Part shown: piece after piece, positions 2,550 to 31,831 of the stretch
Layout of the letters: every line of letters starts with the position of its first letter
How positions within the stretch are numbered: the stretch's first letter is position 1
Origin: Candidatus Iainarchaeum sp.
GTDB taxonomy: Archaea > Iainarchaeota > Iainarchaeia > Iainarchaeales > JACQJH01
NCBI GenBank assembly: GCA_016205145.1
Contig: JACQJH010000002.1
Coordinates: 120,001 to 152,000, forward strand
Length of the DNA stretch: 32,000 nucleotides
Reading direction: 5' to 3'
Notes under the pieces: generated by a model
Databases searched by the model: none
Told to the model about the DNA's origin: nothing
The model's input: only the letters and a program-made list of their open reading frames with translations
Position numbers and translations under genes: made by a program

Positions 2550-2783
2550 ATGGTGAGTTTAACTTTGTCAATTCCGAATGACCTGAAAAGGCGGATGTCG
2601 GAGCACCCGCGGATAAAATGGTCCGAAGTTGTGAGGGCCGTCCTTGAACAGCAGATAAGCGAAATCGAGGAAACCGGGCGGCTTGCATCAAAAAGCAGGC
2701 TGACGGAAAAAGACGTTGAAGCGCTGGCGCTGGCTGCCGACGGGGGCATTGCAAAGCGGTGGAAAGATGCTGCTCGTCGTTGA
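2550..2783 (+). CDS. Ribbon-helix-helix type antitoxin (VapB-like)
   Basis: 77 aa. N-terminal beta-strand then helix pattern (VSLTLSIPNDLKRRMSE...). Overlaps the downstream PIN gene by 17 nt. Confidence 0.65.
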   Translation: MVSLTLSIPNDLKRRMSEHPRIKWSEVVRAVLEQQISEIEETGRLASKSRLTEKDVEALALAADGGIAKRWKDAARR

Positions 2784-3180
2784 CGCGAACATCCTTTTTT
2801 CAGCGTTCCTTAAAAAAGGCCTGACCCGACAGGTGCTGTTGGACAGACGGCTAAGCCTTTTTGCGCCTGAATTCCTTCTCGACGAATTCAAAAAATACTA
2901 TCCTGAACTGCTCAGGCGCTCGGGCCTGGAAAAGGAAAAAGCGCTCAGGCTTTCAACAATTTTGCTTTCAAGAATCGATTTTGTTGAAATGCAGGAACTC
3001 GAACCTTACCGCAAAGCCGCGGAACATCTGACAGCCGACGCAAAAGACGAGGCGTACATTGCGTGCGCCCTGGCGGCAAACGCCGAACTCTGGAGCCACG
3101 ACAGGCACCTCAGGCAGCCGAGAATAAAGTGCTTCAGCACGAAAGAGCTTGCGGAAAGGCTGGCGAAAAAAACGCGCTGA
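2767..3180 (+). CDS. PIN-domain ribonuclease toxin (VapC-like)
   Basis: ATG at 2767 gives MLLVVDANILFSAF... (first acidic PIN residue). Later DEAYIACALAANAELWSHDRHL supplies the C-terminal acidic residues. The longer track ORF (2716) would overlap the antitoxin by 68 nt. Confidence 0.75.
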   Translation: MLLVVDANILFSAFLKKGLTRQVLLDRRLSLFAPEFLLDEFKKYYPELLRRSGLEKEKALRLSTILLSRIDFVEMQELEPYRKAAEHLTADAKDEAYIACALAANAELWSHDRHLRQPRIKCFSTKELAERLAKKTR

Positions 3181-3249: not shown

Positions 3250-4623
3250 ATGGAAAACGTTTCAGTTGTCATACCGGCGCTCAACGAGGAGAAGACGATT
3301 GCAAACATCGTCAGGATTGCGAAAAAAACGCCGCACGTGAAGGAAGTCATAGTGGTTGACGACTGCTCATCGGACCAGACCGTGAAGGAAGCGAAAAAAG
3401 CCGGGGCAAAGGTCGTGCAAAGCAAAATCCTCGGAAAGGGCGCGTCAATGCGCGACGGCCTCAGGGCGGCAACGCAGCCGGTGGTGGCGTTTATCGACGC
3501 GGACCTGTCCAACGTCAAATCAGACATAGTCTGGAGATTGTGCGAGCCGGTGCTGGCGGGGGAAGCGGACTTCGTGAAATCGACTTTCGGCAGAAAAGCC
3601 GGCAGGGTTACGGAGCTTGTCGCGAAGCCGTTGCTTGAACTGTTCTTTCCGGAGGCGACGAATTTCACGCAGCCGCTGTCAGGAATGGTCGCGGGCAGGA
3701 AAAAATTGTTCGACAAAATGGAATTCGAAAACGATTACGGCGTCGATGCCGGCATACTGATCGATGCAGTCATGCTTTCGCCATCCATAGAAGAAGTCGA
3801 CATAGGCTTCATCGGCCACAAAATGAAGTCCTGGCGCGAACTTAAACCTATGTCGCTGGAAGTTTCAAGGGCAATCATTGCCAGGGCGACAAAGTACCGC
3901 AGGCTCAACCTGCTTTCGATGTCCGGCATGGGCAGGTTTTCAGGCGCCCTGGAGGAAACCCTGCAGGAAATGATTCCGTTAAAGCGCAGGCTCGCCGCTT
4001 TCGACATGGATGGCGTGCTCCTGGACGGAAGGTTCATTTTCGAGTTCGCTAAAAGGCACGGCTTCCTTGACAAAATAGAAAAAATTTCAAAAGAAAAGTC
4101 GGACACTTTTATCAAAACAAAAAAAATGGCGCTGCTCATGAAAGACTTCACGGTTCATCAGATAATCGAAACCGCGGACTCGATTCCGATCATGCCGAAC
4201 ACGAAAATAGCCATAAAGGAGCTGAAAAAAGACTGCATTATTGGCATCATAACGGACAGCTACAGCATCGCCGCGGAAACGTTAAGGAAAAAGCTGGAAC
4301 TGGATTTTGCCATCGGCAACGAACTTGAAATCGTGAACGGAAAGGCAACCGGCGAAGTAAGGGTGCCGTCAATTTTCCTTCCGCCGGAAAACGGCTGCAA
4401 AAAGCACGGCGTGTGCAAGTCAAACGCCCTCAAAAAAACCGCGGAAAAACACGGCATCCTCCAAAAAGACACTATTGCCGTGGGCGACAATACTGCTGAC
4501 ATTTGCATGATAAGGGAAGCCGGCATCGGCATTGCCTTCATGCCCAAGGACCGCGAACTCGCGAAAGCCGCCAGAATAGTCATCCGGAAGAAAAACCTGG
4601 CGGAAATGCTCAAATACTGCTGA
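3250..4623 (+). CDS. Fusion protein: GT81/GpgS-like glycosyltransferase (N) plus HAD-IB phosphatase, SerB-like (C)
   Basis: N-terminal half: VVIPALNEEKTI, VVDDCSSD, FIDADL, GRVTELVAKPLLELFFPE, QPLSGMVAGRK, YGVDAGILID. These closely recall glucosyl-3-phosphoglycerate synthase. C-terminal half has HAD motifs I DMDGVLL, II ITDS, III K (KSNALKK) and IV GDNTADICM. Confidence 0.8.
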   Translation: MENVSVVIPALNEEKTIANIVRIAKKTPHVKEVIVVDDCSSDQTVKEAKKAGAKVVQSKILGKGASMRDGLRAATQPVVAFIDADLSNVKSDIVWRLCEPVLAGEADFVKSTFGRKAGRVTELVAKPLLELFFPEATNFTQPLSGMVAGRKKLFDKMEFENDYGVDAGILIDAVMLSPSIEEVDIGFIGHKMKSWRELKPMSLEVSRAIIARATKYRRLNLLSMSGMGRFSGALEETLQEMIPLKRRLAAFDMDGVLLDGRFIFEFAKRHGFLDKIEKISKEKSDTFIKTKKMALLMKDFTVHQIIETADSIPIMPNTKIAIKELKKDCIIGIITDSYSIAAETLRKKLELDFAIGNELEIVNGKATGEVRVPSIFLPPENGCKKHGVCKSNALKKTAEKHGILQKDTIAVGDNTADICMIREAGIGIAFMPKDRELAKAARIVIRKKNLAEMLKYC

Positions 4624-4753: not shown

Positions 4754-6205
4754 TCATTCATCAGCCCTTTTAATTACGCGGACCGTGCCTTTAGTGGCAT
4801 CAACATCCAGCAGATCGCCGTTCCGGAATTTCTGCGTCGCCTTGTAGGTTCCGACAATGCAGGGAATCCCAAACTCTCTTGCAATAATTGCCGCATGAGA
4901 AGTCATGCCGCCCTGGTCGGTCACTATTGCGCCAGCCTTTTCCATCAAAAAAACCATATTAGGCTGAGTCATCGTCGTAACCAGTATATCACCTTGCACA
5001 AAATCAGCAATATCGGCATACAACGCGTCAAGGCCACGGAAAATTATGACTTTTGCCCTCCCTTCAACATGGCCTGGGCTGGCTGGCGTCCCTTTCAATT
5101 CAGCCGCATCATTGCTATCCGCACCAAGAACATCCGCGGCCATCTTTTCTGCCATGGAACCTGAAAAAAACTCTTTTTTTGCATTATCCTGGAAAAAAAC
5201 AAACACGTTCTTTCTTGCCATTCGCTCAGGATCGGAAACAACTACGCCGGATTTAAGAAAATCCCTTGTCTCATCCAGCCGATAAGTTTTGAGGTATTCG
5301 CCAACCCCGATGCCAATCCGGGACGCAATTTCCTTAAACAGACCTAAAAACTTGTATTCTGCACCGTTTTTCCATTCCTTATATTCGAACCGTATTCTGC
5401 CCTGCTCCCTTAAAAACGCAATTAAGTCAAGCAAATCCGAATCATCAATCCGCGCCAGAAGTTTCTGCCGCTTAGCCTCGACCTTTTTTTTCGCAGCCAG
5501 TATTTCTTCAAGATATTTTTCGTGCGAAAGCTTGTTTCGTTTAGCTTCCGAAACCCTGTTTTTTATCGAGTCTATTATTATCTGTTCATCATATGTGCCA
5601 AAGAAGAGAAGAGAATAATTCAGCGCGTGGGTCCGCAGGTCTTCTTCTGGGACAACCTCATTCACGGCGAGTTTTCTAAGGTCAATTTCTTCCCGGTTCA
5701 AAAGGTCCAACTCGGTTGGAGTCAAAAGCAGGCCGTATATTTCCTCCAAATTCTCCCCCGCAAAATGCTTTGGAAGATATTCCCTGACGTGATGTTCAAG
5801 CAAAGAAAAGCTTCTTCCACCGGAAACCTGATAGTAAGCAAACATTCGCTTAAGCCGGTCAGAGTATCCGTCAAAAAACTTTAACAGCCCGGCATTTGAA
5901 AGCTCCCCGACATCGAATTCCTTATAACCGCTGAAAAAAATTTTGAACTCTTCTGCGCAGGAAGCTATCTTCCTTTGGAATTGCGCCCGGTATTTTGGGT
6001 CAAAAAATATTTTTCCTTCAAGCTTGATTCGTTCAAGTTCTTCTGACGGAATGTGACAGGTCTGCAGGCCGCCCTTATTGACATAAATGACTTTTTTCAG
6101 CATTCCGGGAACAGGCGCAAAATCAGTGAATCCCGAAAAAAATATGTCGTTCAATATGAGGGAGTGAATTTCACTGTAAACAAAAATCCAATCTTCCCCC
6201 GCCAT
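4754..6205 (-). CDS. PEP-utilising-enzyme mobile (swivel phosphohistidine) domain protein with uncharacterised N-terminal region
   Basis: The C-terminal ~90 aa read GTPASPGHVEGRAKVI...ILVTTMTQPNMVFLMEKAGAIVTDQGGMTSHAAIIAREFGIPCIVG (catalytic His motif). The N-terminal ~380 aa show no ATP-grasp or PEP/pyruvate TIM-barrel motifs. ATG at 6205 lies exactly 26 nt from the TATA centre; the track start at 6250 is GTG. Confidence 0.8.
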   Translation of the reverse strand: MAGEDWIFVYSEIHSLILNDIFFSGFTDFAPVPGMLKKVIYVNKGGLQTCHIPSEELERIKLEGKIFFDPKYRAQFQRKIASCAEEFKIFFSGYKEFDVGELSNAGLLKFFDGYSDRLKRMFAYYQVSGGRSFSLLEHHVREYLPKHFAGENLEEIYGLLLTPTELDLLNREEIDLRKLAVNEVVPEEDLRTHALNYSLLFFGTYDEQIIIDSIKNRVSEAKRNKLSHEKYLEEILAAKKKVEAKRQKLLARIDDSDLLDLIAFLREQGRIRFEYKEWKNGAEYKFLGLFKEIASRIGIGVGEYLKTYRLDETRDFLKSGVVVSDPERMARKNVFVFFQDNAKKEFFSGSMAEKMAADVLGADSNDAAELKGTPASPGHVEGRAKVIIFRGLDALYADIADFVQGDILVTTMTQPNMVFLMEKAGAIVTDQGGMTSHAAIIAREFGIPCIVGTYKATQKFRNGDLLDVDATKGTVRVIKRADE

Positions 6206-6226
6206 GCCAGAATTATCCCACAAATG

Positions 6227-6235
6227 AAATTTAAA
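6227..6235 (-). promoter_or_regulatory. TATA box (TTTAAATTT on the - strand)
   Basis: Centre at 6231, 26 nt upstream of the ATG at 6205, giving leaderless geometry. Confidence 0.55.
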
Positions 6236-6276
6236 CAGAACTAGAAACACACGGCAGCCGAAATTCTAAGATAAAG

Positions 6277-23935: not shown

Positions 23936-25687
23936 TCAGACCACAAACTTCCCGTTTCTGAGAATGAACCGCTTTCTGCCTTCTTTGTCGACGCCGAAAA
24001 TGTCCATCTTCTGGCGGGGCGCGTTTATGACGATGTCGCAATGGTAGACAGTTTCGCGTTTCGGCTCAAAACCTGAGCCGAGGGCTATGTGCATCATGTT
24101 TGCCATCTTTTCCATTTCGATGAGGTAACGGCCGTGCCCGGCTTTCGGGTTCGTGTTGATTGCGAATTCGCCGACGCGGTCAAAGTTCTGCCGCATGGAC
24201 TTGACAACTTCCGCGGGAAGGCTCTTGTGCTTCGCTTTTTCCCCCAAAACCTTCAAGGCGTCCTTTTTGCGCTTTTCAAATTTTTGCAGCAGAACCCTGT
24301 CGCCTTTCAGCATCGCATAGCGGCCGTTTTTGACCTGAACCACGAGCGGATTGCTTTTCGGGATCCTGTAACTCTGGTCTATGTTGATTATTTCGTCGCC
24401 GACGAATGTTCCATCCATTTTGTACGGCGTGAAAAATGTTTCCCCGCCGGGAAAGTTCGCAAATTCGCCTGCCCTGACTCCAAAACGCCGGAAGGCTTCC
24501 TTGAAAATTTTCGACGTCACGTCGGAATCCGATTCCCAGATTATGACATTGGCTTTCCTCACGGAATCCATGTCGACTACAAGGTCTGTTTTAACGCCGT
24601 TAATTTCCCTGCCCCGCACGAAAATCTTCGAAGATGCGTCAAGCACGGATTTTATGAAAAGATTTTTTTTGTGCATCTGCGCATAGCTTATGTTGCAGGT
24701 GCGGATGAAATTGTCGATCGGCAGGGTTTCGGTTATGGCATAGCGCGTCTTCGGCATTCTCGTGTCATGCCTTGTCTGCACGTTCCACCATGGCTTCAGG
24801 AACATCTGGCCGGGCGCACTCCAGCGGCTTTTCCGGTTCGGCGTCGGATACCCGACATACGTGCCGAAAAAATGCTTGCCGGGATAGCCCTTGCCGTGGA
24901 TTCCGAAGCTCGCATCGGATGGCTTGAGCCTTTGCGAGCCGATGAATTGGGATAGCCGCCTGAATTTCCTGAAAACCGGTTCGCCGATGTTTTTCGAGTA
25001 TTCGCAGCCGGCAAGGGTTGTCTTCAAGTCCGCGCACGCCACAAGCGGTTCAAGCTGGGTTTTCCTGTTCGTGCCGGCAGCAAGGCCCGGCTTTGCGCCC
25101 AAAGCCTTCGCTTTCAATGCCATTGCGTGCGCCATAGCAAAATTGTCAAGGTAATCCTCCAGCGGCAGTTCAAGCCTTTTCGCGGAAGGAATGCATTCGA
25201 AGCCGATTGAAAATTTTTCACCTTTTTTCAATGCAAAACCGCTTTGCAGTATGCGGCCGCAGGTTTCCAGCAGTTCCCTGCCCCGGTATTCTTTGAACCA
25301 GCCCGGCTTGAACGCGATTTTTTTGCCGTTCCACGAAAAACCGTTTTTTTCCGCGCACAGGATTATTTCCGGCCTGCGGAAAATTGCGGAAAAACCCTTC
25401 ACTTTCGCCTTCTTGTCCACTTCCGCAATGAATTCGCGCAATTCTTTTGCGCCGCCGGCTTTTTCGCCAGCCTTCGCCTTTTCAAACAGTCCCCAGGTTT
25501 TTTCCATGACGGGCATTGACTCGGATTTGCCGTCCGAAACCCACATTTCAAAATCGGCTTCTGCGTTGTCCGCGGCCCTGCTAAGCGGGGCGCACGAAAA
25601 AAAGGCATCGGAATCTTTTATGTCTGACAGCAGGACAAGCACGCTTTTGCCCTTCAAAAGCGGCAAAGCACCGGAATAATGCGCCAC
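23936..25687 (-). CDS. M29 (aminopeptidase T/PepS-like) metallopeptidase with an unusually long N-terminal region
   Basis: The C-terminal ~220 aa carry M29-like motifs: FANFPGGETFFTP, RVGEFAINTNP, LIEMEKMANMMHIALGSGF and VYHCDIVI. Total length is 583 aa, against about 360-410 as I recall for the family. GTG start at 25687. Confidence 0.6.
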   Translation of the reverse strand: MAHYSGALPLLKGKSVLVLLSDIKDSDAFFSCAPLSRAADNAEADFEMWVSDGKSESMPVMEKTWGLFEKAKAGEKAGGAKELREFIAEVDKKAKVKGFSAIFRRPEIILCAEKNGFSWNGKKIAFKPGWFKEYRGRELLETCGRILQSGFALKKGEKFSIGFECIPSAKRLELPLEDYLDNFAMAHAMALKAKALGAKPGLAAGTNRKTQLEPLVACADLKTTLAGCEYSKNIGEPVFRKFRRLSQFIGSQRLKPSDASFGIHGKGYPGKHFFGTYVGYPTPNRKSRWSAPGQMFLKPWWNVQTRHDTRMPKTRYAITETLPIDNFIRTCNISYAQMHKKNLFIKSVLDASSKIFVRGREINGVKTDLVVDMDSVRKANVIIWESDSDVTSKIFKEAFRRFGVRAGEFANFPGGETFFTPYKMDGTFVGDEIINIDQSYRIPKSNPLVVQVKNGRYAMLKGDRVLLQKFEKRKKDALKVLGEKAKHKSLPAEVVKSMRQNFDRVGEFAINTNPKAGHGRYLIEMEKMANMMHIALGSGFEPKRETVYHCDIVINAPRQKMDIFGVDKEGRKRFILRNGKFVV

Positions 25688-27075: not shown

Positions 27076-28374
27076 TCACCTGTAAGCGATTTCACCGTGC
27101 GTCGCGCTGTCCAAACCCTCTTCCTCGGCCTTGGGCGAAACCCGCAGGGAATGCACTGCGTCAATGGCTTTCAGCAGGACAAACGAGCCGATGAAGGAAA
27201 ATGCGGCGACTGAAACAACCGCGATTACCTGCGCAACCAAAAGTTTCGGGTTGCCGTAAAACAGGCCGTTCGCGCCCGCGGAATTCACTGCAACGCTCGC
27301 AAACAATCCTGTCGCGATTGCGCCCCACACTCCGCCGACGCCGTGGCACGCAAACACGTCCAGGGAATCGTCAAAGTAATTCCTGCTCGCGCGCCAGTTC
27401 GCGACAAAATTGCACAGCAGGCCTGCAACCAGGCCGATAAGGATTGACGCGAGCGGCGTGACAAAACCTGAAGCGGGAGTGATTGCGACAAGGCCGCAGA
27501 CCGCGCCGATTGCAATGCCGGTCGCCGAAACCTTGCCTTTGGAAACCCGGTCGACAACCATCCACGCAAAGGCGGCTGAAGCCGCGGCAAGATTTGTCGT
27601 GACCAGAGCCGTTACCGCCAGGCCGTTTGCGGCAAGCGCGCTTCCGCCGTTGAAACCGAACCATCCGAACCACAGCAATGCTGCACCAAGAATCACGAAT
27701 GGAATGTTATTGGGATGGAATGATTTCCTGCCGAAATCCCTGCGCTTTCCCACGACCAATGCTGCGGCAAGCGCGGAAAAGCCCGCGGCAATGTGGACGA
27801 CTGTCCCGCCTGCAAAGTCCAGTGCGCCCAGGGCGCGCAGCCATCCGCCGACGCCCCACACCCAGTGCGCAATGGGCGCATAAACAAGGATTGCCCAAAG
27901 AACCGTGAAAACCAAAAGAGAGGAAAACCTTATGCGCTCGGCGAACGCCCCGATGATAAGCGCGGGCGTGATTGCCGCAAACTTCAGCTGGAAAAAGAAA
28001 AACAACAGCAAAGGGATTGTCGCAGCATAGGCTGCAAAGGGCGCTTCGCCCACGCCGTTCAGGCCAATCCATTCAAGCGAGCCGATGAAGCCGTTGCCGC
28101 TGCCGAAGGCAAGCGAAAAACCCACAAGCGCCCAGACAATGCCCATCACGGCAAAAATCGCCATGCTCTGCGTGAGGACCGACAAAAGGTTTTTTGCGCG
28201 CACAAGGCCGCCGTAAAAAAAGCCCAATGCGGGCGTCATGAGCATCACAAGCACGGCGCTGGCCGCAACCCACGCGACGTCACCGGAATCGATGCCCGCA
28301 GGAGCCTGTGCAAACGCGGCGGGTGCAAGCAATGAAAAAAACAGGAACAAAGGCAGGACTCTTTTAATTTCCAT
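27076..28374 (-). CDS. amt: Ammonium transporter (Amt family)
   Basis: ATG at 28374 gives the signal peptide MEIKRVLPLFLFFSLLAPAAFAQ. Amt signatures: DFAGGTVVHIAAGFSALAAALVVGKR and FACHGVGGVWGAIATGLFA. About 11 TM helices. Confidence 0.92.
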   Translation of the reverse strand: MEIKRVLPLFLFFSLLAPAAFAQAPAGIDSGDVAWVAASAVLVMLMTPALGFFYGGLVRAKNLLSVLTQSMAIFAVMGIVWALVGFSLAFGSGNGFIGSLEWIGLNGVGEAPFAAYAATIPLLLFFFFQLKFAAITPALIIGAFAERIRFSSLLVFTVLWAILVYAPIAHWVWGVGGWLRALGALDFAGGTVVHIAAGFSALAAALVVGKRRDFGRKSFHPNNIPFVILGAALLWFGWFGFNGGSALAANGLAVTALVTTNLAAASAAFAWMVVDRVSKGKVSATGIAIGAVCGLVAITPASGFVTPLASILIGLVAGLLCNFVANWRASRNYFDDSLDVFACHGVGGVWGAIATGLFASVAVNSAGANGLFYGNPKLLVAQVIAVVSVAAFSFIGSFVLLKAIDAVHSLRVSPKAEEEGLDSATHGEIAYR

Positions 28375-28467
28375 CACAACCGAACCCCCGCCGCAGCCAG
28401 CCCCAGAAAAGGCCGGCAAAAAAGGCGATAACACTGAAATGCGCGCCCGCCTATTTAAATATTGGGT

Positions 28468-28558: not shown

Positions 28559-28987
28559 TTACACCCTGTTTTCCGCGCACAGGCCCTGCCAGTTCCCGTC
28601 CAGCCATTTCTTCTGCTTTTTCAGGATTTCGCCGAAGCCGCGCAACGCCATCTCCCTGTCCACGACCCCCCCTTTGTGCGGATGCCGGTATTTGCGCTGC
28701 TTGTTCGAGCCGAAACCGTCGAAGTAATGTATGAGCTCATGCAGCAGCGTTGCGTCCAGAACGAATTCCGGCACGCTTGGATGGCAGATAAGCGGATTGA
28801 TTTCAATCAGCGAGCCGAACTCCGCGTCTTTCCGCAAGGGCTTTATGTGCCCGAGCTTGGTGCGCCATTTCTTCCCGAAGCGCACGACCAGGAGGTTTGA
28901 AACCGTTTCATGCGAAAAATTTTCGCGGATAAGATGCGCGGCCCTGCGCGCAAGAACGGAATCGTCAACTGCAAACGCCGGCATCAT
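28559..28987 (-). CDS. HExxH zinc metallopeptidase-like protein (SprT/DUF45-like)
   Basis: 142 aa. VVRFGKKWRTKLGHI...SLIEINPLICHPSVPEFVLDATLLHELIHYF has the layout of SprT/YgjP-type minimal metallopeptidases. Starts with ATGATG at 28987. Confidence 0.55.
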   Translation of the reverse strand: MMPAFAVDDSVLARRAAHLIRENFSHETVSNLLVVRFGKKWRTKLGHIKPLRKDAEFGSLIEINPLICHPSVPEFVLDATLLHELIHYFDGFGSNKQRKYRHPHKGGVVDREMALRGFGEILKKQKKWLDGNWQGLCAENRV

Positions 28988-29007
28988 GGTTTAAATAAAT
29001 GAAAAAG

Positions 29008-29015
29008 TATTTAAG
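29008..29015. promoter_or_regulatory. Single TATA-like box (TATTTAAG) positioned for both divergent genes
   Basis: Centre at 29011.5, which is 24.5 nt from the - strand ATG (28987) and 29.5 nt from the + strand ATG (29041). A second box, TTTAAATA, lies at 28991-28998. Confidence 0.45.
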
Positions 29016-29040
29016 TTATGCAAGGAAAAAAGGCGGCAGA

Positions 29041-29697
29041 ATGGCTCAAACAGGCGACAACAACAAGCTTGCCTTGCTTTTGGGGCGGGCGCAAAGCGGG
29101 AACATGGGCGCGCAGGATGAATTTTTCAGGCGGGCGCGGCCGCAAATATTCGAGTATTTTAGAAAAACGTTTCCGGAACTTACCGTGGACGCAATAGAGG
29201 ACCTGACACAAGACACAATTGTCCGGGCATTCCGTGCATCCGGCAGATTCGAATTCCGCGGCAACGGGGACCCCGGAGTATTTGCATGGCTGTACAGGAT
29301 CGCCACGAATGTGGGGATAAACCGATACAGGCGGGCGCAGAGAACCCCCGAAATGGCGCCAATGGATGAGCACATGGACCGGGTCACAGGGCAGGCGGAT
29401 CCGGCGCCAACTCCGGACAAAATATTGGAAGATAGGCAATTGCCCGAAGATTTGCGGGATACCCTCGCCGCACTTCCCGACGCATTCCGTCAGGCAGTGG
29501 TTCTTGTGGACTTACACGGGTTAACATATGAAAAAGCGGCACAGCTATTGCGTGTTCCAGTCGGAACAGTCAGAAGCCGCCTGTCTCGCGGAAGGAACCT
29601 GCTAAGGGATTCGCTGCCGCACAGGAACCCGGAACGCCATAAGCCATTGCCGCCGCATGAAACCCCCAAACAGCCGAGAAGAAGCCATGGAAGATAA
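29041..29697 (+). CDS. ECF-type sigma-70 family protein (regions 2 and 4)
   Basis: MAQTGDNNK... Region 2: IEDLTQDTIVRAFR...FAWLYRIATNVGINRYRR. Region 4: LPDAFRQAVVLVDLHGLTYEKAAQLLRVPVGTVRSRLSRGRNLL. Pro/Arg/His-rich C-terminal tail. The track start at 28999 lies inside the promoter boxes. Confidence 0.85.
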   Translation: MAQTGDNNKLALLLGRAQSGNMGAQDEFFRRARPQIFEYFRKTFPELTVDAIEDLTQDTIVRAFRASGRFEFRGNGDPGVFAWLYRIATNVGINRYRRAQRTPEMAPMDEHMDRVTGQADPAPTPDKILEDRQLPEDLRDTLAALPDAFRQAVVLVDLHGLTYEKAAQLLRVPVGTVRSRLSRGRNLLRDSLPHRNPERHKPLPPHETPKQPRRSHGR

Positions 29698-29766
29698 TGC
29701 AGCCAAAACGCAGCAAGAAATGTTTTACGCAAACGGGCCGTACGGGCGCAAGAAAAGAGCCGTCAC

Positions 29767-30525
29767 TTGAAAAGCCTGAACTTTCGCCCGCGGCAACTTA
29801 AAATATGGGAACTGACATTTAATGCTTTGGCTGAGTGCATGCGAAAAGACGACCCTGCAAAACTCCTGAATTCAACGCAATGGCGCGATCTCGCAGTAAA
29901 GGCGCGGCTGGGAAACAGAGAAGCTTTGGATGCGCTGTGGGGTTTTGCGTCCGCCTATATTCATGCGGGACTGAGGGAAAACGGCATAAGTTTGAACTCA
30001 CTGCCTGAAAACGAGCGACAGCAGCTTGCAAGACTTTGCAGAAATGAAGTCGTCACGAGGCTGGGCAAGGGAACTTTTTCTTCGGCGAGAAACGATCTTG
30101 ACCTTGGCGGAATGATTCAACTCGCTGCGAAAGCGGCGTCTGACAAATTCGTCAGGCCCGAAACCGGCAAGCGTCCGCCGGAGGCAACGCCCGGAGAAAC
30201 CCCCAAGCGCCGAAAACAAAGCCCGAAAGAACAAAGGGCCCTGCAGTGCCTCCAAATCCTGGCCCAAGAGAAAGGCATAGACTTCCTAAGCCCCGAAAGC
30301 ATAGCAGTAGCCAACGCAATACCCCATGACCGGCGGACCCGTGAACAGAGGCTGTTAGTCAGGATAGCCGCGGACCATATCACAAGAGAAATCTTTACAG
30401 GCCGCAGCTGGGAAGAAATTGCGGCGCAGGCCGCCGAAAGCGCTCAGCATCCCCGGCAGGAAGGGCACAGGCCCGCCCGCGAGGAACACGGCGAGCCGCG
30501 CAAGCCGCCGAAAAGAAGGCCCTGA
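29767..30525 (+). CDS. Hypothetical protein, possibly a degenerate sigma-like or sigma-partner protein
   Basis: TTG start at 29767; an ATG alternative lies at 29839. LGNREALDALWGFASAYIHAGL recalls the start of sigma region 2. SPKEQRALQCL...GRSWEEIAAQ weakly recalls region 4. Basic Pro/Arg-rich tail HPRQEGHRPAREEHGEPRKPPKRRP. Confidence 0.5.
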   Translation: MKSLNFRPRQLKIWELTFNALAECMRKDDPAKLLNSTQWRDLAVKARLGNREALDALWGFASAYIHAGLRENGISLNSLPENERQQLARLCRNEVVTRLGKGTFSSARNDLDLGGMIQLAAKAASDKFVRPETGKRPPEATPGETPKRRKQSPKEQRALQCLQILAQEKGIDFLSPESIAVANAIPHDRRTREQRLLVRIAADHITREIFTGRSWEEIAAQAAESAQHPRQEGHRPAREEHGEPRKPPKRRP

Positions 30526-30593
30526 AAACGCCAACGGAACGACAAAAACAGTTTTAAGCACTACACAACGGACTTTTAGCGGGGGAAAAGTTT

Positions 30594-31088
30594 TTGGCTG
30601 AAGGAAAAGAAACACGGGAAAGCGGGCGGGGCGCAAAGCAGGCGCACTCGCATTCCGACAGGATGTCCTGGGACGATTATTTCATGGCAATCGCGGAACT
30701 CGCGTCAAAGCGCGCGACCTGCCCGCGCAGGAGCGTCGGCGCGGTTCTCGTAAAGAACAAGCGCATAATCGCGACCGGCTACAACGGCTCTCCGCCGGGC
30801 CAGCCGCACTGCATCGACGTCGGCTGCCTGATGGTGGACGGGCACTGCATCCGAACAATCCATGCCGAGGAAAACGCGATTGTTTTCTGCGCACGCGCAG
30901 GCATTCCTGTGGAGGGGGCAACGCTTTACATCACCTCATCGCCATGCCAGCACTGCGCAAAAGTCATAATCGCCTCCGGCATAACGGAAGTCGTTTACGG
31001 CGACGAGTACTGGGCATCCGAGCACGCAAAGCAGTTCCTTGCAGGCTCCGGCATAAAGCTGCGGAAATCCGAACTCAAAAACGCCTAA
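30594..31088 (+). CDS. dCMP (deoxycytidylate) deaminase
   Basis: Motifs: SWDDYFMAIAELASKRATCPRRSVGAVLV, ATGYNGSP, HAEENAI and SPCQHCAKVI (zinc ligands H/C/C). TTG 30594 has GGGGGA upstream. An alternative ATG at 30663 gives MSWDDYFM... Confidence 0.88.
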   Translation: MAEGKETRESGRGAKQAHSHSDRMSWDDYFMAIAELASKRATCPRRSVGAVLVKNKRIIATGYNGSPPGQPHCIDVGCLMVDGHCIRTIHAEENAIVFCARAGIPVEGATLYITSSPCQHCAKVIIASGITEVVYGDEYWASEHAKQFLAGSGIKLRKSELKNA

Positions 31089-31294: not shown

Positions 31295-31831
31295 ATGGAT
31301 TCCATGAAACCACAAACCGCATTCGCCATGGTTTTGCTTTCGGTTTTCCTGTCCGGCTGCGCGCAGGCTCCCGGGCAACAGCAAAATTCCGGCAACGGCG
31401 GATCGCAGGCAAACATCGAAGTGCCCGCCGGCATCGCGCCGCTCGCCGACGACAATTCCCTGCAGCAGTTCACGAACAACCGGCTGCCTGCGCAAATTCT
31501 GGGCGGCTTGGAAATAGCGCCGCTCGAATGCTCTTCCTCGTTCATTCCCGGAATAGGCAATTCACTGGTGTGCACCGCCGCATTCACCAACAATTCGGAT
31601 GAAATCAAGAAGTTTGCCGCAACCATTGCAGTGAAGGATTCTTCTGGCGGCTGCATAATGAAATGCGATGAAGGTTTCGAACTCAACAAGGCATTCATTG
31701 AAATCGCGCCGGATGACACGCAGGAAACCGACTTCACGTGCACGCTCAAGAGCTTTGAAAACCTGAAACCGGAGCTTGTCCTGACACAGGGCGATTACGC
31801 GGCCGAGGGCATCCAAAGGTGCGGGCAATGA
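31295..31831 (+). CDS. Cys-rich secreted lipoprotein (unknown function)
   Basis: Signal peptide plus lipobox (MDS)MKPQTAFAMVLLSVFLSGC and a Gln/Gly/Asn linker. The mature part has 6 Cys. The start is 31295 or 31304; TATA spacing favours 31304. Confidence 0.7.
   Translation: MDSMKPQTAFAMVLLSVFLSGCAQAPGQQQNSGNGGSQANIEVPAGIAPLADDNSLQQFTNNRLPAQILGGLEIAPLECSSSFIPGIGNSLVCTAAFTNNSDEIKKFAATIAVKDSSGGCIMKCDEGFELNKAFIEIAPDDTQETDFTCTLKSFENLKPELVLTQGDYAAEGIQRCGQ

Follow-up and report, generated by a model that had tools for sequence, protein, structure and literature searches.

The 32,000-nucleotide stretch analysed here (hereafter the window) belongs to a contig of Candidatus Iainarchaeum sp. (JACQJH010000002.1, positions 120,001 to 152,000) and harbors a bacterial-type sigma factor gene and a second, co-inherited gene (the partner), both standing between two resident genes for a HExxH metallopeptidase and a dCMP/cytidine deaminase. 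We give about an even chance (roughly 0.5) to the reading that the two genes form a domesticated sigma/sigma-like module, transcribed in this archaeon from archaeal promoters and encoding proteins that bind each other and DNA. According to it, an extracytoplasmic function (ECF) sigma of bacterial ancestry and a fast-evolving, probably sigma-derived partner would have inserted as a unit between the peptidase and deaminase genes in one shallow lineage of Iainarchaeota (Diapherotrites). The site entered by this cassette would already have held a divergent archaeal promoter region, so that TATA boxes of the TBP/TFB type could drive it. The two proteins would bind each other, the partner in the role of a bacterial anti-sigma or co-sigma, and the pair would regulate by binding specific DNA sequences with the well-conserved helix-turn-helix of sigma4. 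Within this reading, the identity of the sigma, the archaeal host, the site of insertion, the joint inheritance of the partner, the intactness and divergence rates of both genes and the promoter-like motifs are established, whereas the binding, the regulatory role and any contact with RNA polymerase belong to the proposed mechanism.

The first gene encodes a true ECF-type sigma (group 4 of the sigma-70 family). Its product matches Pfam Sigma70_r2 at residues 30-102 (33.9 bits, cut-off 24.0), Sigma70_r4_2 (49.3 bits, cut-off 25.7) and Sigma70_r4 (37.5 bits, cut-off 24.1), as well as the NCBIfam sigma70-ECF model TIGR02937 (76.3 bits, cut-off 42.9), and no Sigma70_r3 or r1 match was found in Pfam at E-values up to 0.1. 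The architecture is that of a sigma2 domain, a linker of 34 amino acids (aa), a sigma4 domain and a basic, Pro-rich tail of 26 aa. The region 2 motifs DLTQDTIVRAFR and AWLYRIATN align with bacterial ECF sigmas and the region 4 helix GTVRSRLSRGR is kept, GTVRSR and RGR being invariant in that alignment. The initial annotation, made from the letters of the sequence, was thus right in proposing a complete two-domain ECF sigma, and the region 2 and region 4 peptides that it quoted are both present. The protein is 100% identical to an NCBI record annotated as a sigma-70 family RNA polymerase sigma factor of Candidatus Diapherotrites archaeon, on a contig of 637,306 bp. The next homologues are 41-49% identical, and the close homologues that bear a name are bacterial (37-43% identity; Armatimonadota/Fervidibacter, Abditibacteriales, Binatia and Myxococcota). 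A bacterial ancestry and a horizontal acquisition of the sigma, which now stands behind archaeal TATA-like boxes as the initial annotation had suggested, are supported. The nearest bacterial homologue, P0003, is followed by a zf-HC2 anti-sigma gene. It is located on a contig of 66% guanine-cytosine (GC) content (L056, 2816-6949), with a TadA-like deaminase and a phage-type integrase nearby. That deaminase was considered as a link to the deaminase of the window and discarded, being an unrelated enzyme and a coincidence.

The limits of the acquired unit are drawn by comparison with the closest relative that has a long contig, L011, whose peptidase and deaminase are 56 and 51% identical to those of the window. 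L011 presents genes for an FAD-flavoprotein, an M24 peptidase, a 594-aa hypothetical protein, a DHH protein, the HExxH peptidase and the deaminase, the last two being divergent across a spacer of 42 bp that is free of any cassette. The window exhibits the same order, with amt added in the gap between the DHH and HExxH genes and the sigma-partner pair added in the gap between the HExxH and deaminase genes. Because L011 has this order without the sigma and the partner, the acquired unit is, on gene order, composed of two genes, the sigma and the 228-aa partner. The sigma-like partner of the initial annotation is a travelling companion of the sigma.

A second type of cassette occupies the same site. 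A full HMMER pass over 1.84 billion representative proteins retrieved a single relative of the partner, P0211 (256 aa; E 2.9e-23), with 38% identity in that search and 36% in a MAFFT alignment. P0211 comes from two additional data sets, where its gene lies on contigs of 1.9 kb named L012 (ENA) and L013/L014 (JGI). Part of the same HExxH gene and the beginning of the same deaminase gene enclose it there, together with a sigma of 206 aa that directly follows it, the stop and start codons abutting. Both versions of the cassette thus occupy one insertion site, the partner gene preceding the sigma gene in L012 and following it in the window, and this adjacency indicates that the pairing of the two genes is conserved. 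The right junction and the start of the deaminase gene (window 30542-30691) are 74% identical to the corresponding stretch of L012. Altogether, two cassette types were found in three populations.

A target duplication was considered for the insertion and set aside: the sigma and deaminase genes have near their 5' ends a 19-nt near-repeat (29082-29100, GGGGCGGGCGCAAAGCGGG; 30624-30642, GGGCGGGGCGCAAAGCAGG), whose copies are 1542 nt apart, about the size of the cassette, and which scores 26 against 17.5 +/- 2.4, a value that 0.6% of genomic controls reach; it is marginal and one of many repeat pairs examined. The amt gene (27076-28434, minus strand), between the DHH/RecJ-like and HExxH genes, looks like a second insertion. 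There, L011 has only an ORF (open reading frame) of 55 aa, and DHH is the next recognised gene after the HExxH gene in 19 of 37 species loci. The GC content of amt is 58% and its tetranucleotide z-score about 2.1, and the sequence upstream of it contains a palindromic TATTTAAATA (28452-28461).

The partner itself gave no domain match in Pfam, NCBIfam or PADLOC, and a word-indexed search returned no homologue besides itself. No zf-HC2, RskA or transmembrane anti-sigma domain was found in it, nor any BLAST similarity to the zf-HC2 anti-sigma beside P0003. BLASTP against the sigma matched only low-complexity linker and tail, its profile met only chance MutL matches among PDB sequences, and a metagenome scan with the partner alignment returned only the already known locus. 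The ORF of 252 aa that the initial annotation had described is real. However, the most likely start is the ATG at 29839, giving 228 aa, since NCBI uses that start and the sole homologue aligns from there. An AlphaFold2 model of the 252-aa ORF from the single sequence was uninformative (mean confidence, pLDDT, of 47). The model of the partner built from the two-sequence alignment reaches a mean pLDDT of 71 and presents two helical domains with a disordered basic linker between them, the C-terminal domain being modelled at 86-89; the protein also ends in a basic, Pro-rich tail. This predicted layout is that of an ECF sigma, and in both structure libraries searched the best, though weak, matches are sigma factors. 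Among the top 23 Foldseek matches in the PDB, seven are sigma factors, none of them significant, and the matches include the sigma2 domain of M. tuberculosis SigC (TM-score 0.61 on the target). In a library of viral structures, sigma factors or RNA-polymerase subunits make up nine of the top 11 (best E 0.08, probability 0.98). Similarly, hhalign aligned the N-terminal domain colinearly with sigma region 1.2-2.2 (E 3e-4 to 9e-4, probability 23-42%); the C-terminal domain was not detected as sigma by this method. None of these Foldseek and hhalign results is significant individually. A divergent member of the sigma family is the more probable identity of the partner, yet an unproven one, and the sigma-likeness proposed initially can be kept as plausible.

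The module is preceded by promoter-like elements of archaeal type. The initial annotation had paired the sigma gene divergently with the gene of the 142-aa HExxH protein across a 53-bp spacer (ggTTTAAATAaatgaaaaagTATTTAAGttatgcaaggaaaaaaggcggcaga) and had drawn there a single bidirectional TATA box. The pairing is confirmed, and the box, TATTTAAG at 29008-29015, indeed lies at the proposed distances, its centre being 29.5 nt from the ATG of the sigma and 24.5 nt from that of the peptidase. However, one shared box is not required, as the spacer holds two opposed TATA-like boxes. Read on the minus strand, the first is CTTAAATA; it is about 23 nt away from the peptidase ATG and suits a peptidase mRNA without a leader. 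The second, TTTAAATA at 28990-28997 on the plus strand, had been missed and would start the sigma mRNA near 29020, with a leader of about 20 nt. We infer this assignment of each box to a gene from the sequence. The distances of the boxes to the two start codons would suit archaeal TATA elements, for which an octamer some 23-30 nt ahead of the transcription start and an enrichment in intergenic DNA are expected. The exact octamer TTTAAATA occurs five times in the window against 0.56 expected (about 9-fold), a count that none of 100 shuffles reached, and it is always intergenic, upstream of ScpA, carA and amt and in the 53-bp spacer. Only one of the 53 positions differs in a strain with an overall DNA identity of 90%. 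Since a pair of A/T boxes is crossed in the same way in the 42-bp spacer of L011, the divergent promoter region seems to have existed before the cassette entered it. The 141-bp spacer between the sigma and partner genes may be the partner's own promoter; a stretch that is similar by eye, aacTTAAAATAt...catttaat, precedes the partner gene in L012. A scan for sigma-70 promoters and terminators gave nothing beyond chance, and no intrinsic terminator stands out. In both lineages the sigma gene ends with ...GGAAGATAATGC, and its TAA stop overlaps the ATG of a short ORF (29695-29801 in the window, 34 aa; 1783-1818 in L012, 11 aa), which is probably not a gene because the peptides are not conserved.

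The history of the cassette can be read from the comparison of the window with L012. The two archaeal sigmas are 36% identical, are reciprocal best BLAST hits (125 bits), form a cherry in 334 of 500 neighbor-joining bootstraps and have in common an insertion of 4-5 residues in the loop that precedes the AWL motif. Given that the partner and the site are common as well, one acquisition before the two lineages split would be the simplest history. The proteins of the cassette diverged much faster than the flank: the HExxH gene retains 86-88% protein identity, with 0.09 non-synonymous (dN) and about 0.97 synonymous (dS) changes per site, whereas dN amounts to 0.59 for the sigma and 0.65 for the partner (about 36% identity). 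Nevertheless, both ORFs are intact in both lineages, and since this holds after about one silent change per site in the flank, we infer that the cassette genes are under selection. At four-fold sites under identical amino acids, 20 of 42 differ in the flank, 19 of 36 in the sigma and 32 of 45 in the partner, with saturation expected near 0.74; the sigma looks as old as the flank and fast-evolving in protein only. The idea that sigma2 erodes while sigma4 is kept was examined and abandoned. Indeed, the archaeal pair is 30% identical in sigma2 and 54% in sigma4 (30 of 56 residues), against means of 33 and 53% in 5,203 bacterial ECF pairs of similar divergence, so that the polymerase-binding domain shows no selective decay.

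Several observations weigh against a domesticated module. The silent sites of the partner are nearly saturated, well beyond those of the flank, so an exchange of cassettes or a gene conversion would be an alternative to evolution in place, and a cassette dN of about 0.6 for a flank dS of about 1 would be compatible with weak constraint. The generic ECF-type promoter pattern GAAC-N15-18-CGT, the only form searched, has no match ahead of the cassette, and its 21 matches in the window amount to no enrichment over the 14.8 +/- 3.9 expected. Finally, the sigma-like fold of the partner rests on the model from two sequences at pLDDT 71 with Foldseek E-values of at least 0.08, and a sigma profile of 121 sequences brings its N-terminal domain to an hhalign E-value of 0.015 only.

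These data invite other explanations. The cassette might be a conflict or mobile module with fast turnover, exchanged at a hotspot or acting on another organism, for instance on the RNA polymerase of a bacterial neighbour or a virus, and not a housekeeping regulator of the archaeon. The strong discordance between cassette and flank, the permuted gene order at one site, the near-saturated silent sites of the partner, the basic Pro-rich motifs repeated on both proteins and the proximity of amt, which also looks inserted relative to other lineages, all suit this explanation. However, no integrase, transposase or above-chance flanking repeat was found at the locus, PADLOC gave no hit of note, no phage record matches the partner, and scans of viral contigs returned no relative of the partner and, for the sigma, only relatives with 22-29% identity. 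Moreover, the silent divergence of the sigma matches that of the flank, as fits vertical descent, and we consider a conflict or mobile module unlikely. The cassette might instead be passenger DNA, a fragment without function in the archaeon that drifts towards loss, as could be suspected from the very fast amino-acid divergence, the very narrow distribution, and the fact that a bacterial-type promoter and anti-sigma were not found. The integrity of both ORFs over such a time speaks against it, as do the residues retained in sigma4, which include the GTVRSRLxRGR helix, the conservation of both sigma domains at the level of functional bacterial ECF pairs, and a partner-sigma linkage that outlasted a rearrangement. 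We find mere passenger DNA rather doubtful; a domesticated module is the preferred reading.

The initial annotation had also counted the HExxH peptidase as a member of the cassette, acquired together with the sigma and the partner and controlling the sigma by regulated proteolysis. The adjacency of the two divergent genes and the conservation of the HExxH motif, which reads HELIH in the 142-aa protein and is nearly invariant in its family, had made this attractive. However, the family (70 proteins, 45-92% identity) is archaeal and widespread: those of its members that bear a name all stem from Diapherotrites, Iainarchaeum, Micrarchaeota or "archaeon" metagenome-assembled genomes, and the gene is conserved in Iainarchaeota/Micrarchaeota with 50-59% identity. 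A scan of one genome per GTDB species gave 37 loci, all in archaeal records, and none of the 37 harbors a sigma or partner homologue within 6 kb of the peptidase gene. As these genomes carry the gene without the cassette, the peptidase is, on this comparison, a resident, lineage-wide gene that borders the insertion and lies outside the acquired cassette. The idea of a dedicated protease finds no comparative support either, because the peptidase gene of L011 already forms a divergent pair with the deaminase gene, and the peptidase diverges about 7-fold more slowly than the cassette. The proteolytic cassette is thus largely refuted by comparative data and appears highly improbable. As for its class, the 142-aa protein may be a small metallopeptidase of SprT/YgjP type. 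It resembles the SprT and YgjP (DUF45) zinc metallopeptidases by its HExxH motif and by sub-threshold profile matches, but it differs in that its Pfam SprT-like score (18.4 bits) is below the cut-off of 25.6 and that a profile search of its family against the PDB found no related solved structure. Among 14 members of the family, nine match SprT-like and eight YgjP-like profiles, all sub-threshold with E-values of 1e-4 or weaker.

The archaeal nature of the host and the soundness of the assembly were examined at locus scale. Eight other window proteins were looked up, and for six of them NCBI has a record from the same contig and organism (Candidatus Diapherotrites archaeon), either with the identical sequence or as a cluster member whose annotated start differs. 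Two Logan per-run assemblies from different runs, L001 (27977-31143) and L002 (28583-30953), are 100% identical to the window and span both cassette junctions, and L052 and L053, from other samples, present at 90% DNA identity the amt and HExxH genes, followed by the same spacer and codons 1-13 of the sigma. In the 37 species loci, the neighbours of the peptidase gene are DHH/RecJ-like, Na/H exchanger, CysRS, KaiC-like ATPase and ScpA genes, all of which are also window genes. In view of these assemblies, of the 90% identical strain and of an archaeal peptidase family with a shared neighbourhood, the host is archaeal, as the initial annotation had assumed, and a bacterial contig and a chimeric join are both excluded at this scale. 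A sigma wrongly joined or binned from a bacterial contig, which its bacterial homologues and the mild compositional deviation of the cassette could have suggested, is hardly credible given the two identical per-run assemblies, a left junction present in a third population, a second cassette type found between the same two archaeal genes on contigs from ENA and JGI, and flanking genes that both have archaeal orthologues in conserved synteny.

The coordinates of the features are collected in Table 1. The three ORFs drawn in the initial annotation for the peptidase, the sigma and the partner are all where it had placed them, the basic Pro-rich tails that it found unusual are confirmed in both cassette proteins, and its caution about composition was justified, as the cassette deviates only mildly: the GC content of the sigma and partner genes is 56-57% against about 51% for most window genes, and the tetranucleotide z-score of about 2-2.4 is similar to that of two other window regions. 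The 28-nt repeats, which encode a basic ETPKxxRR-type motif, form a family (D1 in the repeat search) of three copies with 71% identity, two of which have an exact GAAACCCCCAA core. The deaminase matches Pfam dCMP_cyt_deam_1 (105 bits) and is annotated at NCBI as a protein of 141 aa that starts at ATG 30663. An Rfam search of the window gave no RNA family.

Table 1. Coordinates of the cassette, its resident flanking genes and the associated sequence elements (window positions)
Feature	Position	Strand	Remarks
Four-gene locus	28559-31088		HExxH gene (-), then sigma, partner and deaminase genes (all +)
Putative SprT/YgjP-like HExxH metallopeptidase, 142 aa	28559-28987	-	Left flank of the insertion; NCBI MBI4053157.1 begins one codon later
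Divergent spacer, 53 bp	28988-29040		Two TATA-like boxes
ECF-type sigma-70 family protein, 218 aa	29041-29697	+	Pfam and NCBIfam matches above cut-off
Sigma-partner spacer, 141 bp	29698-29838		TATA-like TTAAAATA (29798-29805) and ATTTAATG (29817-29824)
Partner protein, 228 aa	29839-30525	+	ORF reaches back to TTG 29767 (252 aa)
Spacer 5' of the deaminase gene	30526-30593		TATA-like TTTTAAGC (30552-30559); right-hand insertion junction
Resident dCMP/cytidine deaminase, 164 aa from TTG 30594	30594-31088	+	Right flank of the insertion
28-nt repeat, copy 1	29659-29686	+	Sigma tail; encodes a basic ETPKxxRR-type motif
28-nt repeat, copies 2 and 3	30196-30223; 30493-30520		Partner linker; partner tail

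Other observations were made in the window. A fused glycosyltransferase-2/HAD phosphatase gene (3250-4623) is directly preceded by a pair formed by an RHH_12 antitoxin and a PIN-domain toxin (about 2560-3180, plus strand; also in L003, 3781-4396). A 498-aa protein (4754-6250, minus strand) presents only a PEP-utilising mobile domain, at its C-terminus, and in composition no other region of the window deviates as strongly as this one (44% GC, tetranucleotide z-score up to 2.6). A 583-aa protein without family match (23936-25687, minus strand) keeps in L011 (7971-9755) its position beside the M24 peptidase gene. Finally, a 178-aa protein (31295-31831, plus strand) exhibits a bacterial-style lipoprotein signal (…VFLSGCAQ…) and a weak Tubby_C-like match.

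Archaeal transcription starts with TBP and TFB instead of sigma factors. In the archaeal polymerase, two elements, the clamp coiled-coil and the flap/wall, are structurally conserved with the docking sites of sigma2 and sigma4 in bacteria. A sigma-partner heterodimer could dock on the archaeal RNA polymerase at these two elements, or compete there with TFE or Spt4/5; alternatively, the pair could be delivered to a bacterial neighbour and redirect its polymerase. The retention of sigma2 at the level of working bacterial ECF pairs is compatible with both versions, and we judge this reading quite improbable. If the first version were true, a bacterial-style layer of promoter selection would have been added to TBP/TFB-dependent transcription.

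The bacterial pairs of ECF sigma and anti-sigma (RpoE-RseA, or the SigE/SigH type with zf-HC2) are the first known systems to which the locus can be compared. A cognate anti-sigma of known class beside an ECF sigma is common but not universal. The window sigma has the same two-domain sigma2-sigma4 organisation, the motifs DLxQDTxLRAFR, AWLYRI and GTVRSRLSRGR, and an adjacent co-inherited second gene. However, this second gene has none of the zf-HC2, RskA or transmembrane anti-sigma domains, no autoregulatory GAAC/CGT promoter was found at the locus, and the host is archaeal. Sigma-like accessory proteins are known from the sigma mimic PhyR, from SigO-RsoA of B. subtilis and from split phage sigmas of the gp33/gp34 or gp55/gp33 type. 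By analogy with these, the locus may associate a sigma with a second, degenerate sigma-related protein in place of a classical anti-sigma. The partner differs from PhyR by having no receiver domain, and no NepR-like small protein accompanies it, whereas the window sigma, unlike split sigmas, is complete.

Sigma genes in archaea are not without precedent. MiST2 (2009) reported no ECF sigma in 69 archaeal genomes, but sigma-70 genes (fam00359) were later described in DPANN archaea, where they are particularly prevalent in Woesearchaeota, mis-binning being excluded via neighbouring archaeal genes; no anti-sigma was found and the mechanism was left open (Castelle et al., 2021, Front Microbiol, PMC8204110). 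The novelty is accordingly lower than the initial annotation had assumed. As in that report, a bacterial sigma-70-type gene is found in a DPANN genome without a canonical anti-sigma. The role of a complete sigma in archaea has been a question since then, no regulator having been named, and the present locus narrows it: the acquisition is dated and its site defined, the module can be compared in two diverged versions, and the candidate binding partner unique to the module makes direct tests feasible. The locus would also provide a worked example of a foreign gene made expressible by landing in a divergent promoter of its host. In contrast to the earlier cases, for which no partner was named, the present one comes from Iainarchaeota/Diapherotrites and comprises an insertion point defined exactly by synteny, a co-inherited partner gene, a second cassette in permuted order and a discordance of rates between cassette and flank, all of which appear to be new relative to that report.

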